A DNA stretch of 13,730 nt from a virus, in UHGV virus genome UHGV-0087644. One strand, written 5' to 3'. Under the pieces are notes generated by a model. It saw only the letters and a program-made list of their open reading frames with translations, did no database searches and was not told the origin of the DNA. This document shows, piece after piece, positions 264 through 10,198 of this stretch. The first letter of the stretch is position 1; every line of letters starts with the position of its first letter. A program made the position numbers and the translations under genes.

Positions 264-632
264 TCACTCCCCTTTGATGCGAATGCCAGCGGCGCGGATT
301 GCATCGATGACTTCAGAAACTTTGTATGCCATTACCGTTTGGTAATCATCGTGAAAATCTGTTCGATGAAGCATGCTGCTACGTTCCGGGAGCAGTATTT
401 CCCGCTCCTCCAGTTCTGCAATGCGTTTGCTTTGAGCTTCCAGTTCACCCAGTAGTGCCAGCACGGTAGCCGGATTAGCCTTGGCAATAAAATCCCGGAC
501 TGGCTTACAATCAATCTCCGCACTACCGTGACGAATAACGAAAAAATCACCGTTTATTTTTTTAGCTTGCCACTTATCTTTACCGGCTTTCACTGCCACA
601 TCACGCAGTGCCTGATAGTCAATCTCGCTCAC
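264..632 (-). CDS. hypothetical phage protein (possibly Ead/Ea22-like, tentative)
   Basis: 122-aa ORF in track; GTG start at 632-630 preceded by strong SD AAGGAGG; overlaps upstream gene by 14 nt. Family label is from memory of an ANPATVLALLxELE-type motif only. Confidence 0.55.
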   Translation of the reverse strand: MSEIDYQALRDVAVKAGKDKWQAKKINGDFFVIRHGSAEIDCKPVRDFIAKANPATVLALLGELEAQSKRIAELEEREILLPERSSMLHRTDFHDDYQTVMAYKVSEVIDAIRAAGIRIKGE

Positions 633-1113
633 TGGTTACCTCCTTCATAAAAATAATCCAGTGGGTCTTGTCACCCTTTCCTGTTCGTTGACCGATAACA
701 GGCTTTCTGTCGGTCAGTGCCAATATCTGGCGAACAGGTATTTGCGTTTCATTCCATTTAAAAATCAGAACGCCGTATGGCCACAACACACGAAAGGCTT
801 CTTTGAATCCCTGCCGTAAATCATCACGCCAGGTATCTTTATTCAGCCGTCCATATTTCTTTCCCATCCAGGCGTTATCACCAACACGCTCAAGATGCGG
901 AGGGTCGAATACAACCATCGAAAAGGATGCGTCTGCAAATGGTAGTGCACGAAAATCAGCCATCAGGTCAGGACTGATAATCAGGCGTCGTCCATCACAC
1001 AATGTGTGCTCTTCCTTTCTGATATCGCTAAATATCGCCCGGTCGTCATTCTTATCGAACCAGAACATGCGACTACCACAGCACATGTCGAGGATTGCTG
1101 CATGTCCAGTCAC
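619..1113 (-). CDS. small SAM-dependent methyltransferase, probably DNA N6-adenine/N4-cytosine type
   Basis: 164-aa ORF; motif-I-like ILDMCCGS near N-terminus and motif-IV-like VVFDPPH about 60 aa later; GTG start at 1113 with strong SD AAGGAGG, overlapping upstream stop (GTGA). Target and base specificity not determinable by eye. Confidence 0.55.
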   Translation of the reverse strand: MTGHAAILDMCCGSRMFWFDKNDDRAIFSDIRKEEHTLCDGRRLIISPDLMADFRALPFADASFSMVVFDPPHLERVGDNAWMGKKYGRLNKDTWRDDLRQGFKEAFRVLWPYGVLIFKWNETQIPVRQILALTDRKPVIGQRTGKGDKTHWIIFMKEVTSERD

Positions 1114-1802
1114 TGGTTGCCTCCTTTGCGAAGCTGGGCATCGGTATTGATGCGACTAAAATAGAATCCGAATACTTTCTTCCATGGCTTAACAACAGCG
1201 TCCCTGATTGAGTTTGGGTTAAATCCAGCCTCGATGGCCTGTTTGCTGTCAAAGAACACATACCCAAAACCTTCCTCGTTCTCAGCGCAGACTGGACCTT
1301 TATACGAACCGTGTTTTCTTCCCCCGGCCAGACCTGTTCTATATGCGTGCTGAGTGTTGCCCGCTACCGTCGTCCACTCCAGGTTTGAAACATCATTGTT
1401 TTGTTTATTCCCGTCTATATGGTTAATTACGTGCTCATCAGAAGGCTTAGGGCCGAGAAAGTTTTCAGCAACTAATCGGTGGATGTTCACGCCTTTTAGT
1501 TTTCCTTCAAGCTCCAGCCTAACGAATAAATACTGATTTCTGTTCTTGCCGCGCATGGTTGGGTTTAATTGCTTTAGTTCGCCAGAGGCCAATGAGAAAA
1601 TGAGTCCCTTTGAGGTGATGAAATAGCGATACTTAAAACCAAAAATCTCTTTCACATCGCCAAATAAGTCAGCCAGCGCCGCGCACTTGGCCTCCGCTTC
1701 AGCAAATTTACGCACCAGATATTCAGCGTTTGTTTCGTTAACCTTTAAATCACTTGGGATGCATTTACCTTTCAGAAATCCATCCATCTCAATTAGTGTC
1801 AT
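1110..1802 (-). CDS. HNH homing-endonuclease-like protein (NUMOD4 + HNH_3 type)
   Basis: Track ORF 1110-1829; contains [17 protein letters not shown] (NUMOD4-like) then [20 protein letters not shown] (HNH_3 signature). Start chosen at ATG 1802, which overlaps the upstream stop (ATGA); 1811 or GTG 1829 are alternatives. Confidence 0.7.
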
Positions 1803-1972
1803 TTGTTCCATTTCTTCCCACTCCGCCACATTGCATTCAGATATTTGTTGTCATTAACAGAACCGAAACTATTTCTCTTAAGCAATTCCTCTCTCGATGG
1901 CATTGGCTTTACGCGTTGGCGAATAATCATTTCTGCCGGAAGAATGCCGGGATTGTATGCAAGTCCTCTCAT
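1799..1972 (-). CDS. hypothetical small protein (57 aa)
   Basis: Sub-ORF of track ORF 1799-2122; ATG at 1972 preceded by GAGGA; stop overlaps HNH start. The longer track version would overlap the upstream gene extensively. Confidence 0.3.
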
Positions 1973-1982
1973 TGTAAATTCC

Positions 1983-2276
1983 TCAGTCATTACTGATAGC
2001 GCCATAGCGTGAGCGGTAATTACGCAGGCGCGGGTCAATTTCAGGGAAGTGGGTATATGTGGCTTTGCGGAATGGTCGGATTGATGTCTGGTAAATTCGC
2101 TCGCGTTCTTCTTTCTCTGCAAGCCATATACAGTGGCGAAATTCCTTTTCCTCTTTCGTTTCCTGCGGTAGAGACATTATTCGATCGTAGTTTTTTCTGA
2201 ATTTATCCAGCACCTCCGATACGGAATTGCCGGAACAGCGGCGCGGGTCATCCGCACCATACAAAGGCGCTGGCAT
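1983..2276 (-). CDS. hypothetical protein, possibly anti-RecBCD Abc2-like (P22 abc2 position and size)
   Basis: 97-aa ORF with SD AAGGAT before ATG 2276; sits distal to erf as abc2 does in P22. Assignment is by position, size and partial sequence recall, not a search. Confidence 0.45.
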
Positions 2277-2299: not shown

Positions 2300-2683
2300 T
2301 CAGAATGGGATGGAATCGTCGTATACAGGAGTGTTCTGCTGGTTACTACTTTGCTGCTGCGGGCCATTTCCTGAAGCTGCAAATCCAATCTTTGCATTCA
2401 GTAATTCAAGAGTGATTGATTGACCATTTTGCCCCTGATAAATATCAACCCTGATGTTTTCTCCGGTAATTTCAACAATGCCACCTTCAACAAGAACACT
2501 ACGGTAGTAATCCGCTTGCGCTCCCGGCTTGGCAAATACAACGGAGCTGTAGTTTGTCCATTCTTTCTTTTTTGTCTGGCGATCGTAATACTGAACGCCA
2601 GCACGGATGTTGAATCCGATATTTTCCCCGGTATGAAACTCTCTTGCGGGCTTGTTTAGTCTTACGGTAATCGAATGTGCCAT
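2300..2683 (-). CDS. mini single-stranded-DNA-binding (SSB-like, OB-fold) protein
   Basis: Start at internal ATG 2683-2681, overlapping erf stop (TAATG); 127 aa ending in DDSIPF, the canonical SSB acidic C-terminal tail, preceded by a Gly/Gln-rich linker and OB-fold-like N-terminal region. Confidence 0.55.
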   Translation of the reverse strand: MAHSITVRLNKPAREFHTGENIGFNIRAGVQYYDRQTKKKEWTNYSSVVFAKPGAQADYYRSVLVEGGIVEITGENIRVDIYQGQNGQSITLELLNAKIGFAASGNGPQQQSSNQQNTPVYDDSIPF

Positions 2684-3288
2684 TAAGCAGCAGCTCCTTC
2701 TAATTCGTCTCGTCTGATGTTGTAAACGTCCTGCGCTTTGTGCTGCTCCGGTGTGCCTTCGAGCATCTTCCACGCTTTGGCGAACGCCTGTTTAAGCTCT
2801 TCTACGGTGTTTTTCTGCATTGCTGCGTCAGTGAATGCTTTTAGAACCTGTTCAGGTGTAGGTGATGGTTTTGATTGCTTTGCTGCTGCGTTCTGCTGAT
2901 GTTTATGCTCGTCGGTATCTGCATCTTTCGCATCATCAATGCCGAACAAACCATTGAGGCAATACTTGCGTGCATAAGAGCTTGTAGCTCCCGTAACTTG
3001 TGCAGAATCCATTCCTTTCTTGCTTTCTTCCTCTCGTGCAAGAGCGGTTGCCGTATGACTGTTTTCGCCATCGGTAATAGTTGCCGTGGCTTTCACGTAA
3101 TACCGATCACCAATCAACACAACTTCATCGCTGATTGATAAAAACAGACCATTCAGTAACGGCTTAACGCCTTCAAGAATGTCTTCGCAGCTTCTGTATT
3201 TATATTTACCGAATGAGTTGTACTGATTCTTTGGCGCGTTCAGATTCTCCTGAATGGCTGCCAGCCTTGCATAAAATTCTTTGCTCAT
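2683..3288 (-). CDS. erf: Erf, essential recombination function (ssDNA annealing) protein
   Basis: Track ORF 2683-3318; sequence from MSKEFYARLAAIQENLNAPKNQYNSFGKYKYRSCEDILEG matches my recollection of P22 Erf. Start placed at ATG 3288 because the 3318 start is a TTG without SD. Confidence 0.8.
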   Translation of the reverse strand: MSKEFYARLAAIQENLNAPKNQYNSFGKYKYRSCEDILEGVKPLLNGLFLSISDEVVLIGDRYYVKATATITDGENSHTATALAREEESKKGMDSAQVTGATSSYARKYCLNGLFGIDDAKDADTDEHKHQQNAAAKQSKPSPTPEQVLKAFTDAAMQKNTVEELKQAFAKAWKMLEGTPEQHKAQDVYNIRRDELEGAAA

Positions 3289-3389
3289 ATGTTTGATCTC
3301 AGAATGGACACGGCCCAAGGAAATAACGCTGATTTAATACTTCGACTCGGGACAAATTAAGGCATACCCGCATTCCTTCGCGGTCGCCA

Positions 3390-3837: not shown

Positions 3838-4806
3838 TTAGTAGGTTATTTTTGTTGCGAATACTTCGCCTTTTACGATGGCTGTTATGATATTTTTAGC
3901 AACATCTTCTGATGCGCCAACCTTGATAAGGTCAGCAAGTATTTTGTTATTTACTTCTTTCCGGTGAGCTTTATCCTTTGCTCTACGCTCTTCTTCGTCC
4001 TTGATTCTTTTTCCTTCTGCTATTCTGGCTTGCTCTTTTGCTTCAGCCTCGCGCCGGATTCGTTCAGCCTCCTCCTGTGCTTTTCGGCGTTCTGCTTCAA
4101 TTGCCGCCTGCTTTTCTCTTTCAGCTCGTTCTGCTGCCTCTTTTGCTTCGCGCTGTGCTCGTTGCTCGGCTTCAATGCGTTCACGCTCTGCACGTTCCGC
4201 TGCGGCCTTAGCTTCTGCTTCTCGCCTTGCTGCTGCTTCAATTTCGGCTTTTGCCTTTGCTTCGGCTTCTGCTCTGGCTTTCTCTTCAGCTTCTCTTTTT
4301 AAGCGTTCTTCATACTCTCGCTTTTCCTGCTCCGCTTTGAGTCTTGCCTCTTCTCTTTGGCGGTCAAATTCGCGATCCATCAAAATAGCTATTTCATGGT
4401 CAGACTCAATTTGCTTTGCGAGAGCTTCAGCTGCTGCCTTAGCTTCTTCTTCGGCTTTAATCCGTGCCTGTTCCTCCTCATAATCAGTAAGAGGCTGGCG
4501 CGCCTTGGCTTTCAGTTCATCAAGGCGATCGCGCACTGTCTTGCGGTTGGCATCAATTAGCTTTGGAATTTCCTTCAGTTCAGCAACAAGGTCTTTGCCA
4601 AGACCATCGAGATATGTTTTCGTCTGCGCAACTTTATACGCCAGAGAAGCGATCTCCTTTCTGCCCTTTGCCGTTGTGATATCAGGCACAAAGGACATAA
4701 CTTCACGTTCAACCCTTTGAAGGATTTCTTCAATCTGGTCGGCAGACTGAAATACAGTCATTGCATTTGCTTTTTCAATAACAACTAAATCTGTTACTTC
4801 ACTCAT
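3838..4806 (-). CDS. coiled-coil protein with long E/R/K/A-rich helical segment, function unknown
   Basis: 322-aa track ORF; ATG 4806 with SD GGAGG; folded-looking N-terminal about 110 aa, then about 160 aa of charged low-complexity helix (EAEAKAKAEIEAAARREAEAKAAAERAERE...), then short C-terminal domain ending KITY. Confidence 0.7.
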   Translation of the reverse strand: MSEVTDLVVIEKANAMTVFQSADQIEEILQRVEREVMSFVPDITTAKGRKEIASLAYKVAQTKTYLDGLGKDLVAELKEIPKLIDANRKTVRDRLDELKAKARQPLTDYEEEQARIKAEEEAKAAAEALAKQIESDHEIAILMDREFDRQREEARLKAEQEKREYEERLKREAEEKARAEAEAKAKAEIEAAARREAEAKAAAERAERERIEAEQRAQREAKEAAERAEREKQAAIEAERRKAQEEAERIRREAEAKEQARIAEGKRIKDEEERRAKDKAHRKEVNNKILADLIKVGASEDVAKNIITAIVKGEVFATKITY

Positions 4807-6100: not shown

Positions 6101-6259
6101 TCAGACACCCCAAACTCTGAACCACCAACGAAGAAACATGACGACTGGCGGGGTAGACAGAAGAATGGCCGCATTGATAAGAAGAATGGCCGCAGTGATA
6201 AGCAGACCCAAAATGACCCCCTGCACTACGACCGGGAGTTTTTCATACAGTTTTTTCAT
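6101..6259 (-). CDS. small single-pass membrane peptide (52 aa)
   Basis: Not in track; SD AAGGAG 5 nt before ATG 6259; MKKLYEKLPVVVQGVILGLLITAAILLINAAILLSTPPVVMFLRWWFRVWGV has one hydrophobic helix; contains an in-frame 21-bp tandem duplication. Confidence 0.4.
   Translation of the reverse strand: MKKLYEKLPVVVQGVILGLLITAAILLINAAILLSTPPVVMFLRWWFRVWGV
6160..6201. repeat. 2 x 21-bp tandem direct repeat (one mismatch) inside the membrane-peptide ORF
   Basis: GAAGAATGGCCGCATTGATAA / GAAGAATGGCCGCAGTGATAA; in-frame, encoding duplicated LITAAIL/LINAAIL heptads. Confidence 0.6.
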
Positions 6260-9219: not shown

Positions 9220-9381
9220 ATGACAAAACGTCGTAAGAAATACCAGGAAAAAGAAGAGATTCGACACCCTGATTCACCTGAGGGATTAGTGGTAGCCGCA
9301 GCAAATAACAGGGCGTTCGCAGAGCGCCTTGTTGGTGTTTACAGACTAGCCAAAGCAGGAGTGAAACATGGGCGTCGTTAA
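9220..9381 (+). CDS. possible small basic protein (53 aa) between cII and O
   Basis: Not in track; ATG 9220 preceded by AGGAG; [53 protein letters not shown]; 3' end overlaps the O start by 14 nt. Confidence 0.3.
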   Translation: MTKRRKKYQEKEEIRHPDSPEGLVVAAANNRAFAERLVGVYRLAKAGVKHGRR

Positions 9382-10198
9382 GTTAGCTGATTACAGGCCT
9401 CAACTGGAGGTCGTGGAGCATCGCGTGGCAGAACTCGAAGATGGCTACACTCGGACTGCAAACACACTGTTAGAAGCCGCCATGCTTTCTGGACTTACTC
9501 TACATCAGTTACTGATTGTTATGGCTGTGTGGCGCAAGACATACGGTTACAACAAAAAAATAGATTGGATCGGAAACGAACAGTTCGCTGAACTCACTGG
9601 CATGGCACCAACCAAATGCTCTACCGCCAAAAACGAGCTTATCAGAATGGGAGTTCTCATTCAGGTTGGGCGTCAAGTTGGTATGAATACAAACATTTCC
9701 GAGTGGAAAACGAAAGTTAACGGATTCGGTAAAACATTTACCAATTCGGTAAAACAAACCTTCACCAAATCGGTAAAAAGCAATTTACCGAATCAGTCAA
9801 ACACAAAAGACAATATACAAAAGACAATAAATACAAATACCCCCTTACCCCCTAACGGGGATGGCGATGGGCAGGTTAAACCTGAACGTCGCAAGGCAGA
9901 ACGAATCGACTACGAATCCTTCCTGAACGCCTACAACACCGAAGTCGGTGACAGACTTCCACACGCTGTTGCGGTCAACGAGAAACGAAAACGCCGCCTG
10001 AAGAAAATCATCCCGCAACTGAAAACGCCAAACGTGGACGGTTTCAGGGCGTATGTCAGGGCTTTTGTGCATCAGGCCAAGCCGTTTTACTTCGGAGACA
10101 ACGACACGGGCTGGACGGCTGATTTTGATTACCTGCTTAGGGAAGACTCGTTAACGGGAGTTCGGGAAGGGAAGTTTGCAGACAGGGGGATTGCATGA
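9368..10198 (+). CDS. O: replication initiation protein O homolog
   Basis: 276-aa track ORF after cII; SD AGGAG; iterons and an A/T-rich stretch inside the coding region; stop overlaps helicase start (ATGA). Confidence 0.75.
9724..9840. repeat. origin of replication: iterons plus A/T-rich region inside the O gene
   Basis: Direct repeats ATTCGGTAAAAC (9724-9735, 9744-9755), ATCGGTAAAAAG (9768-9779), inverted copy TTTACCGAAT (9784-9793), then A-rich 9801-9840. Confidence 0.6.

Follow-up and report, generated by a model that had tools for sequence, protein, structure and literature searches.

The window analyzed here is the whole stretch of 13,730 nucleotides of the virus genome UHGV-0087644. 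The genes and features that bear on the repeat described below all lie on its minus strand:

264–632, minus strand: Ead/Ea22-like gene, downstream of junction copy 1.
601–628, minus strand: downstream extension at copy 1, GCGAGATTGACTATCAGGCACTGCGTGA, the N-terminal codons MSEIDYQALR.. conserved in Ead/Ea22-type genes.
619–1113, minus strand: methyltransferase cassette, encoding a small class I SAM-dependent (DNA) methyltransferase of 164 aa.
629–645, minus strand: junction copy 1, AAGGAGGTAACCAGTGA, with the SD AAGGAGG, a 6-nt spacer and the GTG start of the Ead/Ea22 gene.
1110–1126, minus strand: junction copy 2, AAGGAGGCAACCAGTGA, with the last HNH codons K-G-G-N-Q-stop, the SD, the spacer and the methyltransferase GTG.
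1110–1811, minus strand: HNH_3 endonuclease-like gene, upstream of copy 2.
1127–1138, minus strand: upstream extension of the consensus junction, CCCAGCTTCGCA, codons ..AQLR.
1799–1990, minus strand: DUF2737 gene, here with an alternative tail and then HNH.
1983–2276, minus strand: Abc2 anti-RecBCD protein, which marks a P22-like early-left recombination and accessory operon.
2683–3318, minus strand: ERF-family single-strand-annealing recombinase, in the same operon as the methyltransferase.

The two junction copies form a 17-mer repeat, AAGGAGGYAACCAGTGA on the coding strand, and are identical at 16 of 17 positions; no third copy was found in the whole window with up to three mismatches allowed. 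The repeat as observed is real, and the sequence-only reading, which had described a near-identical cassette at two gene starts, was correct as to sequence, strand and the coordinates of copy 2 but misplaced copy 1, which lies at 629–645 and not at 630–646. Two matches to this given pattern were observed against 0.04 expected in the window. Under a fairer null, in which any direct 17-mer repeat with at most one mismatch was counted in dinucleotide-shuffled windows, 26.5% of the shuffles contained at least one (mean 0.32), so that the in-window repeat alone is weak evidence; what makes the pair compelling is that each copy stands at a gene junction, in one and the same register, and that related genomes contain the motif in very large numbers.

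Both copies read AAGGAGG, 6 nt and GTG, an SD spacing within the 5–9 nt expected of a translationally coupled junction. At copy 2 the methyltransferase GTG (1113–1111) overlaps the TGA of the HNH ORF (1112–1110) as GTGA. At copy 1 the GTG at 632–630 is the start of the Ead/Ea22 ORF, and the methyltransferase ORF passes through the copy in a shifted frame (..MKEVTSERD-stop) to its stop at 621–619, running 11 nt beyond the GTG, with an overlap of 14 nt between the two ORFs; the Ead start does lie upstream of the methyltransferase stop as first described, with a gap of 8 nt for which 9 nt had been an approximation. The other elements of that description – the SD, the 6-nt spacer, the GTG start and the GTGA overlap – can be read directly from the sequence and agree with the RefSeq gene calls in the close relative L476, in which the same GTG is annotated as a start and the coding sequences overlap by 4 nt on either side of the methyltransferase. 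The motif is thus located at gene boundaries, with the upstream stop and the downstream start both within the 17-mer. Elsewhere, the exact GTGA overlap, with an upstream ORF ending in the KGGNQ-stop frame, was present in 99 of 127 occurrences, a tally of frames that probably over-counts the shifted-frame cases (for example class U2, in which both frames are open). The CCCAGCTTCGCA extension at 1127–1138 is common to many otherwise unrelated upstream genes and lengthens the homology patch to ~29 nt. In many relatives DUF2737 terminates as ..MWRKGGNQ-stop straight into the motif. The HNH_3 gene has a chimeric N-terminus and is itself a presence/absence module, being absent from L476.

Searches for the exact motif gave at least 120 IMG/VR contigs. 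A separate set of 80 loci was selected for DUF2737 alone; of these, 53 had the motif on the coding strand with at most one mismatch, as against none on the non-coding strand of the same 80 loci (395 kb), and variation among these motifs fell mostly in the spacer, the SD and GTGA being the invariant parts. A consensus junction of 67 nt matched 389 phage records, among them HK75, HK542, mEp phages, Stx phages and Salmonella SE1. Of 5426 complete E. coli genomes, 2558 contained it, with as many as 11 places in one genome; lambda matched the Ead N-terminal part of this consensus only, and not the motif. The repeat had been taken beforehand for a conserved boundary sequence, and further copies of it are indeed abundant. 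Chance matches to the exact 17-mer in 596 Gb of sequence would number about 70–140 by our own estimate, and a genome contig collection of this size gave at least 120 matches in random taxa (MAGs, Streptomyces and others), which are uninformative.

Among the IMG/VR contigs listed, a set selected by the motif and therefore biased towards junctions that retain it, 13 upstream and 24 downstream protein classes occurred in 40 combinations. The partners included DUF2737, HNH, Ead variants, DUF7739, DUF7446, a PAPS-reductase-domain protein, the methyltransferase and several ORFans. Between unrelated partners, the conserved part was only ~CGCA, the 17-mer and G, and pairwise identity among representatives of the 13 upstream and 24 downstream classes was at background beyond about −5 to −16 and +2. 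The shared joint measures ~21–22 nt universally, ~30 nt where the ..AQLR codons are present and ~45–60 nt where the Ead N-terminal codons are present. One and the same methyltransferase ends in KEGNQ-stop (an 18-nt form, in L125 and L128–130), KEGKQ-stop (L476), KEVTSERD-stop (the window) or KEAASEQD-stop (L122), and these differing tails mean that the motif is read in two frames. Judged from such comparisons, conservation is at the nucleotide level and not at the peptide level; the shifted-frame argument uses the methyltransferase and DUF7446 cases only.

Breakpoints were measured in pairs of loci that are homologous over at least 150 nt on one flank, the other flank being the one scored; the loci were again motif-selected, with the same bias towards retained motifs. 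Of 368 pairs, 194 lost downstream similarity 0–4 nt past the motif and another 136 lost it at +25 to +39, the latter being a second common breakpoint that corresponds to the GCGAGATTGACTATCAGGCACTGCGTGA extension, and upstream similarity stopped within 24 nt of the motif in 351 of 363 pairs. In one relative, L222, the break falls within the motif itself, at window position 1122. Cassette boundaries and synteny breakpoints thus coincide at the motif, which was one of the checks proposed beforehand. Relatives with "empty sites" were also found: L202 and L203 carry HNH, a single motif and Ead, without the methyltransferase, and in these two and in L001 both window copies align to the one motif present. 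The HNH flank of the window is 99.5% identical to L202. The converse arrangement is seen in L476, which has DUF2737, the motif, the methyltransferase and Ead, without HNH. Across the motif, the methyltransferase (at least 94% aa identity) faces at least seven different upstream genes. Breakpoints, empty-site relatives and the variety of upstream partners together bear out the proposal that the methyltransferase was inserted or swapped as a motif-bounded cassette, the comparative data being compatible with insertion as well as with deletion between the direct repeats.

No inverted repeat or palindrome was found at either copy, nor any attC-like structure, and the RNA folds of the two copies differ and have unremarkable energies. 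A small hairpin (GCUUC/GAGGC) over the SD of the canonical junction was considered and dropped, since by eye it was not preserved in the variants from other genera. There was no Rfam match anywhere in the window and no promoter- or terminator-like site on the coding strand at 629–645 or 1110–1126. Chi (GCTGGTGG) is absent from the window; the complement of the motif, ACTGGTTG, differs from Chi at two positions. Pfam searches of the major window ORFs identified ERF, a repressor, replication O and DnaB, and no integrase.

We propose that the early-left accessory ("ea", exo-xis) operon in E. coli lambdoid and P22-like prophages uses a standard inter-cistronic joint throughout, with the 17-mer at its core, and a joint that is also a short homology patch for cassette exchange is probably the best explanation of the data. 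Such a joint would act as a translation re-initiation signal, with its consensus SD AAGGAGG, 6-nt spacer and GTG overlapping the upstream TGA (GTGA), so that each promoterless gene of the operon would be translated coupled to its upstream neighbor. The translation role is consistent with an indirect hint from loci in which the methyltransferase is the last gene (L126, L132–136 and L138), where the SD has decayed to AAATAGG. Since the same nucleotides lie between many unrelated gene pairs, the joint would in addition be a portable homology patch, and crossovers inside it could exchange, insert or delete single genes while the stop, SD and start stay intact in every gene. The crossovers would probably be the work of single-strand-annealing recombinases of the phage, of which the ERF encoded 1.6 kb away is one, or else of host RecA; the phage's own ERF is the probable agent here. 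Rad52-like phage recombinases are efficient on short, diverged sequences (PMC3945230), which together with the presence of ERF in the operon gives circumstantial support for recombination at the joint. The arrangement in the window would be the expected product of a single joint crossover between two assumed parents, an L202-like phage with DUF2737, HNH, joint and Ead and an L476-like phage with DUF2737, joint, methyltransferase, joint and Ead. All the support for recombination at the joint is comparative, and it is from this that we infer homologous recombination within the joint as the mechanism of exchange.

The main alternative is that the motif is kept only as a very good translational-coupling signal, the swaps being made by illegitimate, homology-independent recombination with selection for intact gene boundaries, so that the motif would mark exchange without causing it. 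We regard this as unlikely, yet it has several observations on its side. The SD and GTGA are invariant amid a variable spacer, and the SD decays at the end of a gene series. Illegitimate joins made at random and then sifted by selection would likewise leave breakpoints at gene boundaries. Efficient recombination usually takes ~23–27 bp of homology for RecA, and efficient Red recombineering 30–50 nt; the universal core of ~21 nt is short by this measure, and the longer patches exist in subsets of partners only. Many methyltransferase homologues of other genera have different junctions, which also counts against the preferred reading. Conserved sequences are absent at most phage mosaic joints according to PMC3029335. 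On the other hand, the 6-nt spacer does not have to be identical for translation, but 40 partner combinations share the exact 17-mer; breakpoints lie 0–4 nt from the motif and in one case inside it; and both window copies map to one copy in relatives, which is a signature of exchange between repeats and not of random joins. Moreover, the different spacer at the homologous junction in other genera points to lineage-wide homogenization and not to functional convergence.

Two further explanations are both very improbable. In the first, the conserved element would be a C-terminal peptide tag, ..AQLRKGGNQ, with a function at the protein level, and the DNA repeat would be its by-product. The predominance of the KGGNQ-stop frame in the tally above fits this idea, as do HNH homologues of other phages that keep a ..QLRKG.. 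tail while the downstream sequence differs. However, the same 17 nt are kept in the other frame in methyltransferases ending in KEVTSERD-stop, KEAASEQD-stop or KEATSE-stop, and also in DUF7446 with its tail ..KQEATSEQD-stop, and DUF2737 functions with either RKGGNQ-stop or RSGKKWNK-stop; a peptide tag as the main cause was rejected since conservation of the nucleotides extends over two reading frames. In the second, the motif would serve a dedicated mobility system, either as the site of a site-specific recombinase in the manner of integrons or as a place at or near which HNH cuts, driving homing of adjacent genes. The HNH_3 endonuclease gene does end within copy 2, and single promoterless genes are bracketed by a repeated site in integron fashion. 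Against this, the motif lacks the inverted repeat or hairpin of attC; the window ORFs scanned with Pfam, a subset of those in the 13.7 kb, match no integrase or recombinase except ERF; and only about 20 close HNH relatives occur in IMG/VR, as compared with at least 120 contigs with the motif. Homing of the methyltransferase by HNH was rejected since the two genes occur independently, the methyltransferase without HNH in L476 and L122–130 and HNH without the methyltransferase in L202 and L203. Finally, that the two window copies are a chance repeat, as the shuffled windows might allow, has a negligible probability and is already refuted by the comparative data, both copies lying at gene junctions in one register and hundreds of phage records and thousands of genomes having the motif again, always on the coding strand.

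The preferred reading, a coupling signal that is also a patch for exchange, makes the joint a well-documented example of what has been described as a conserved boundary sequence (Susskind and Botstein; Clark 2001) and not a new kind of element. As presented in PMC3029335, which cites the modular theory (Susskind & Botstein 1978) and the boundary sequences of HK620 (Clark et al. 2001), lambdoid boundary or "linker" sequences are likewise short, lie at gene boundaries in the early (metabolic) half of lambdoid and P22-like genomes and are common to otherwise unrelated neighbors; mosaic breakpoints fall there too, and general homologous recombination has been proposed. What is added here is the scale (thousands of genomes and 40 partner combinations), the reading in two frames and the explicit empty sites. 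The PeSLs of T4-type phages (PMC2839356, PMC4122927) are similar: these short, conserved regulatory motifs stand on either side of small accessory genes in hyperplastic regions, give each cassette its own expression signal and have been proposed to allow modular shuffling by homologous recombination. A PeSL is, however, a transcription signal of T4-type phages (early promoter and terminator stem-loop), whereas the joint in these temperate lambdoid phages is a translation signal (SD and overlapping stop/start) of 17–30 nt without promoter, terminator or stem-loop. PeSLs are roughly 50–100 nt long. With integron cassettes and attC, the joint shares arrays of promoterless single genes separated by a recurring site and highly variable partners, but it has no attC-type imperfect palindrome, no integron integrase was found among the ORFs scanned, and the joint lies inside coding sequence, doubling as SD and start, with exchange presumably general or by single-strand annealing. 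The mosaic ea22/ead genes of lambda and Stx phages (PMC10834534) belong to the same genomic region and gene family, and the common N-terminal segment of their proteins, which is followed by variable C-terminal domains, corresponds to the downstream extension of the present joint. Protein domains are the subject of that work, and the passages of it that were searched do not contain an intergenic 17-mer as a joint between unrelated genes.

A more far-reaching version of the proposal, which we offer as a long shot, is that the joint is a selected "plug-and-play" adaptor, the counterpart of an integron without a dedicated integrase, by which lambdoid, P22-like and even P1-like phages would trade promoterless accessory (possibly anti-defense) genes with the help of the single-strand-annealing recombinases that they encode. 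On this view, exchangeability, selected for at second order or upheld by gene conversion, would keep the spacer identical, and the needs of translation would not.

The origin of phage mosaicism is a matter of old and continuing argument, one side favoring homologous exchange at short conserved linkers and the other illegitimate joins made at random and followed by selection; the usual objection to linkers is that they are not findable at most joints (PMC3029335). The joint provides an abundant and well-defined test case, 17–30 nt long, found in thousands of E. coli prophages and common to dozens of unrelated gene pairs, and its natural "occupied" and "empty" alleles, with a candidate recombinase nearby, make the linker hypothesis directly testable. 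As a landmark, the motif may help to annotate GTG starts and to delimit accessory-gene cassettes in the ea/exo-xis region of Stx and other prophages, and it could be used to insert genes into such phages with native expression signals. About half of complete E. coli genomes contain the joint, and it appears to be a place where accessory genes are exchanged.

The early-left operon of a P22-like or lambdoid prophage, on the minus strand, makes up the left 7.6 kb of the window; the genes for the repressor, replication protein O and a DnaB-type helicase lie to its right. The operon genes considered here, beginning with the first in transcription order, are as follows.

2683-3318, minus: ERF recombinase (Pfam)
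2300-~2700, minus: SSB-like ORF between ERF and Abc2, with an acidic SSB-like C-terminal tail (..PVYDDSIPF)
1983-2276, minus: Abc2 anti-RecBCD protein
1799-1990, minus: DUF2737 protein
1110-1811, minus: HNH_3 endonuclease-like protein
619-1113, minus: small class I SAM-dependent DNA methyltransferase
264-632, minus: Ead/Ea22-like protein

The SSB-like ORF gave no Pfam match at E <= 1e-3, and phage HK75 has an SSB annotated at the equivalent position; with the GTG listed at 2773 as its start this ORF would overlap ERF, and the true start probably lies further downstream. Elsewhere in the window, the Phage_rep_O gene (9368-10198) carries three direct repeats of ~23 nt at 9712-9778 on the plus strand, spaced by 20-24 nt (..AAACNTTNACCAANTCGGTAAAA), which are probably replication origin iterons. 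A 322-aa ORF at 3838-4806 (minus) without a Pfam match has internal repeats, the plus strand being rich in GCTTC/TGCTTC, as would fit a protein rich in alanine, glutamate and lysine; it holds a 17-mer near-repeat at 4199/4430, and another lies at 6159/6180. The Chi site (GCTGGTGG) is absent from both strands of the window, and no Rfam family reached its gathering score across the whole window.

The sequence-only reading had described a repeated 17-nt cassette at the two ends of the methyltransferase gene. Both copies are present on the minus strand, as AAGGAGGTAACCAGTGA at 629-645, one position away from where it had been placed, and as AAGGAGGCAACCAGTGA at 1110-1126. Each is a coupled stop/start joint made of a consensus Shine-Dalgarno sequence (AAGGAGG), a 6-nt spacer and GTG, as had been read from the DNA; at copy 2 the GTG and the HNH stop overlap as GTGA, also as described. 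At copy 1 the GTG is the Ead start, and the methyltransferase reads the motif in a different frame (..MKEVTSERD*) to a stop 8 nt beyond, giving a 14-nt overlap. None of the other junctions of the window operon carries the motif, and no promoter or terminator was found at it. The repeated 17-mer alone is weak evidence, because in 26.5% of dinucleotide-shuffled windows some 17-mer recurs in direct orientation with one mismatch or none; the case for the motif stands on its position and on other genomes.

Further copies were sought in related genomes, as had been proposed, and were found in large numbers. An IMG/VR scan with the exact motif pattern returned at least 120 contigs, nearly all matches lying in the same kind of region. 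Among 80 loci (395 kb in total) taken only for encoding DUF2737, and hence independently of the motif, 53 had it on the coding strand, allowing one mismatch, and none had it on the opposite strand. A 67-nt consensus of the junction matched 389 phage records, including HK75, HK542, HK446, HK633, mEp phages, many Stx phages, Salmonella SE1 and the P1-like phages RCS47 and D6, the match in lambda being limited to the N-terminal part of Ead. The same consensus matched 2558 of 5426 complete E. coli genomes, at up to 11 places per genome, with 677 places being plasmid-borne. The junction accompanies an Ead-like gene in P1-like phage-plasmids, namely RCS47 (locus L479, 1501-1550), D6 and E. coli plasmids of ~100 kb, which suggests that exchange takes place between lambdoid and P1-like phages; in RCS47 the CDS pair at the junction shares 14 nt, the same overlap as that of window copy 1.

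The motif joins many unrelated gene pairs. When the ORFs ending and those starting in the motif at 127 occurrences were each clustered with shared ends trimmed, 13 upstream and 24 downstream classes were obtained in 40 different combinations, the partners including DUF2737, HNH, many Ead/Ea22 variants, DUF7739, DUF7446, a PAPS-reductase-domain protein, the methyltransferase and several ORFans. Conservation around the motif varied with the partners: across class representatives it covered only about CGCA, the 17-mer and G, while a weaker upstream extension, GCCGCCCAGCTTCGCA (..AAQLR), was common to many but not all upstream genes and a downstream extension, GAGCAAGATTGACTATCAGGCACTGCGTGA, to Ead-type genes. 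For the Ea22 family, PMC10834534 independently notes that an N-terminal segment is shared and that the C-terminal parts are mosaic. DUF2737 itself has two tails, one (..MWRKGGNQ*) ending in the motif in many relatives and in E. coli PM06121 (locus L476, 2931-2951), the other found in the window (1799-1830, minus) and in most DUF2737-anchored loci, where the next gene begins MKQM.. or MEQM...

Cassette boundaries also coincided with synteny breakpoints, similarity stopping at or near the motif. Where two loci shared homology across 150 nt or more on one flank of it, downstream similarity was lost 0-4 nt past the motif in 194 of 368 pairs, and in another 136 it reached +25 to +39, where the Ead N-terminal block ends; upstream, 351 of 363 pairs lost similarity inside 24 nt. 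For loci chosen by methyltransferase or HNH homology, blastn match ends clustered at window 621-660 and 1081-1140, part of this clustering reflecting plain gene ends in distant homologues; the same ends came out of a megablast comparison with E. coli genomes (628-1134, 621-1115, 46-645, 1107-2400 and 1107-1140), and in one relative (L222) divergence from the window begins inside the motif, at 1122. The HNH protein is chimeric, its first ~38-47 residues (window 1698-1811, minus) matching the N-terminus of the common gene found after DUF2737 in most relatives, and other PHROGs than its core does; 1686 and 1698 are the starting points of many window matches in E. coli, indicating a mosaic breakpoint within the gene.

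Empty and occupied alleles of the site were both observed. Two relatives (L202 and L203) carry DUF2737 and HNH, then a single motif followed by Ead, and have no methyltransferase; their single motif aligns with both window copies, as does that of an Stx2a phage (L001), and on the HNH side L202 and the window share 99.5% identity over 200 nt. Conversely, PM06121 has DUF2737, the motif, the methyltransferase, a motif-like joint and Ead, lacks the HNH module (window 1131-1823) and in RefSeq shows 4-nt overlaps at both methyltransferase ends. The window gene order would be the expected product of one crossover in the joint between an L202-like and a PM06121-like phage; the reverse event, deletion between two direct repeats, is equally compatible with the data. 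In E. coli FSIS11705876 (L477, 2001-2507) the methyltransferase module, flanked on either side by the junction and matching window 628-1134 at 95%, lies in another prophage context, adjoining yfdR-type genes; an internal stop makes it a pseudogene there.

The closest methyltransferase relatives (at least 94% aa identity) follow the canonical motif behind at least seven different upstream genes, which together with the empty and occupied sites supports the proposal that the gene was inserted or swapped as a cassette. A version of the joint is always present at their 3' end, in varying register.

18-nt joint (AAGGAGGGCAACCAGTGA or AAGGAGGGCAAACAGTGA), in frame: tail KEGNQ* or KEGKQ*, in L125, L128-130 and PM06121
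17-nt joint, frame shifted: tails KEVTSERD*, KEAASEQD* and KEATSE*, in the window, L122, L127 and L123/124

DUF7446 genes likewise end in the shifted frame (..KQEATSEQD*), so that it is the nucleotides and not the peptide that are conserved. Where the methyltransferase is last before non-coding DNA (L126, L132-136 and L138), the Shine-Dalgarno has decayed to AAATAGG within a relic junction (AAATAGGCATCCAGTGAGTAG), which fits a role of the motif in translation of the gene that follows. More distant methyltransferases and HNH homologues of other enterobacterial phages have related but different joints, such as CTTCGCAAAGGAGTGCAGTCATGA, so the joint evolves with the phage lineage.

The joint probably provides translational coupling within a long promoterless operon and acts as a homology patch for recombination. 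A universal core of ~21 nt is short for efficient recombination; 30-60 nt are common to many partner pairs. The phage encodes the ERF single-strand-annealing recombinase and Abc2, and Rad52-like phage recombinases (Redβ, RecT, Erf) recombine short, diverged sequences and generate mosaics (PMC3945230). The main alternative, a pure translation signal with gene swaps by illegitimate recombination, is rather improbable, as it does not readily account for a spacer that stays the same in 40 combinations, nor for the way both window copies map onto one motif. Dedicated mobility, integron-like or by HNH homing, is unlikely given that the motif has no palindrome, that no integrase was found among the window ORFs scanned and that HNH and methyltransferase occur independently of each other. 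A conserved peptide tag is countered by conservation in two frames, and a chance repeat is excluded by the comparative data.

The window joint fits the short conserved boundary sequences of the modular theory of lambdoid phages, reportedly discussed by Susskind and Botstein in 1978 and by Clark et al. in 2001; the exact motif may already be listed in the latter. PMC3029335 cites such sequences as a mechanism that has been proposed but can seldom be identified. A functional parallel is found in T4-type phages with their PeSL cassettes (PMC2839356, PMC4122927), although PeSL is a promoter-terminator unit whereas the window joint is a translation signal. The joint thus belongs to a known kind of element, as a new and well-populated example of it, and is not a new kind; its main value is in giving the linker hypothesis of phage mosaicism a concrete and plentiful test case.
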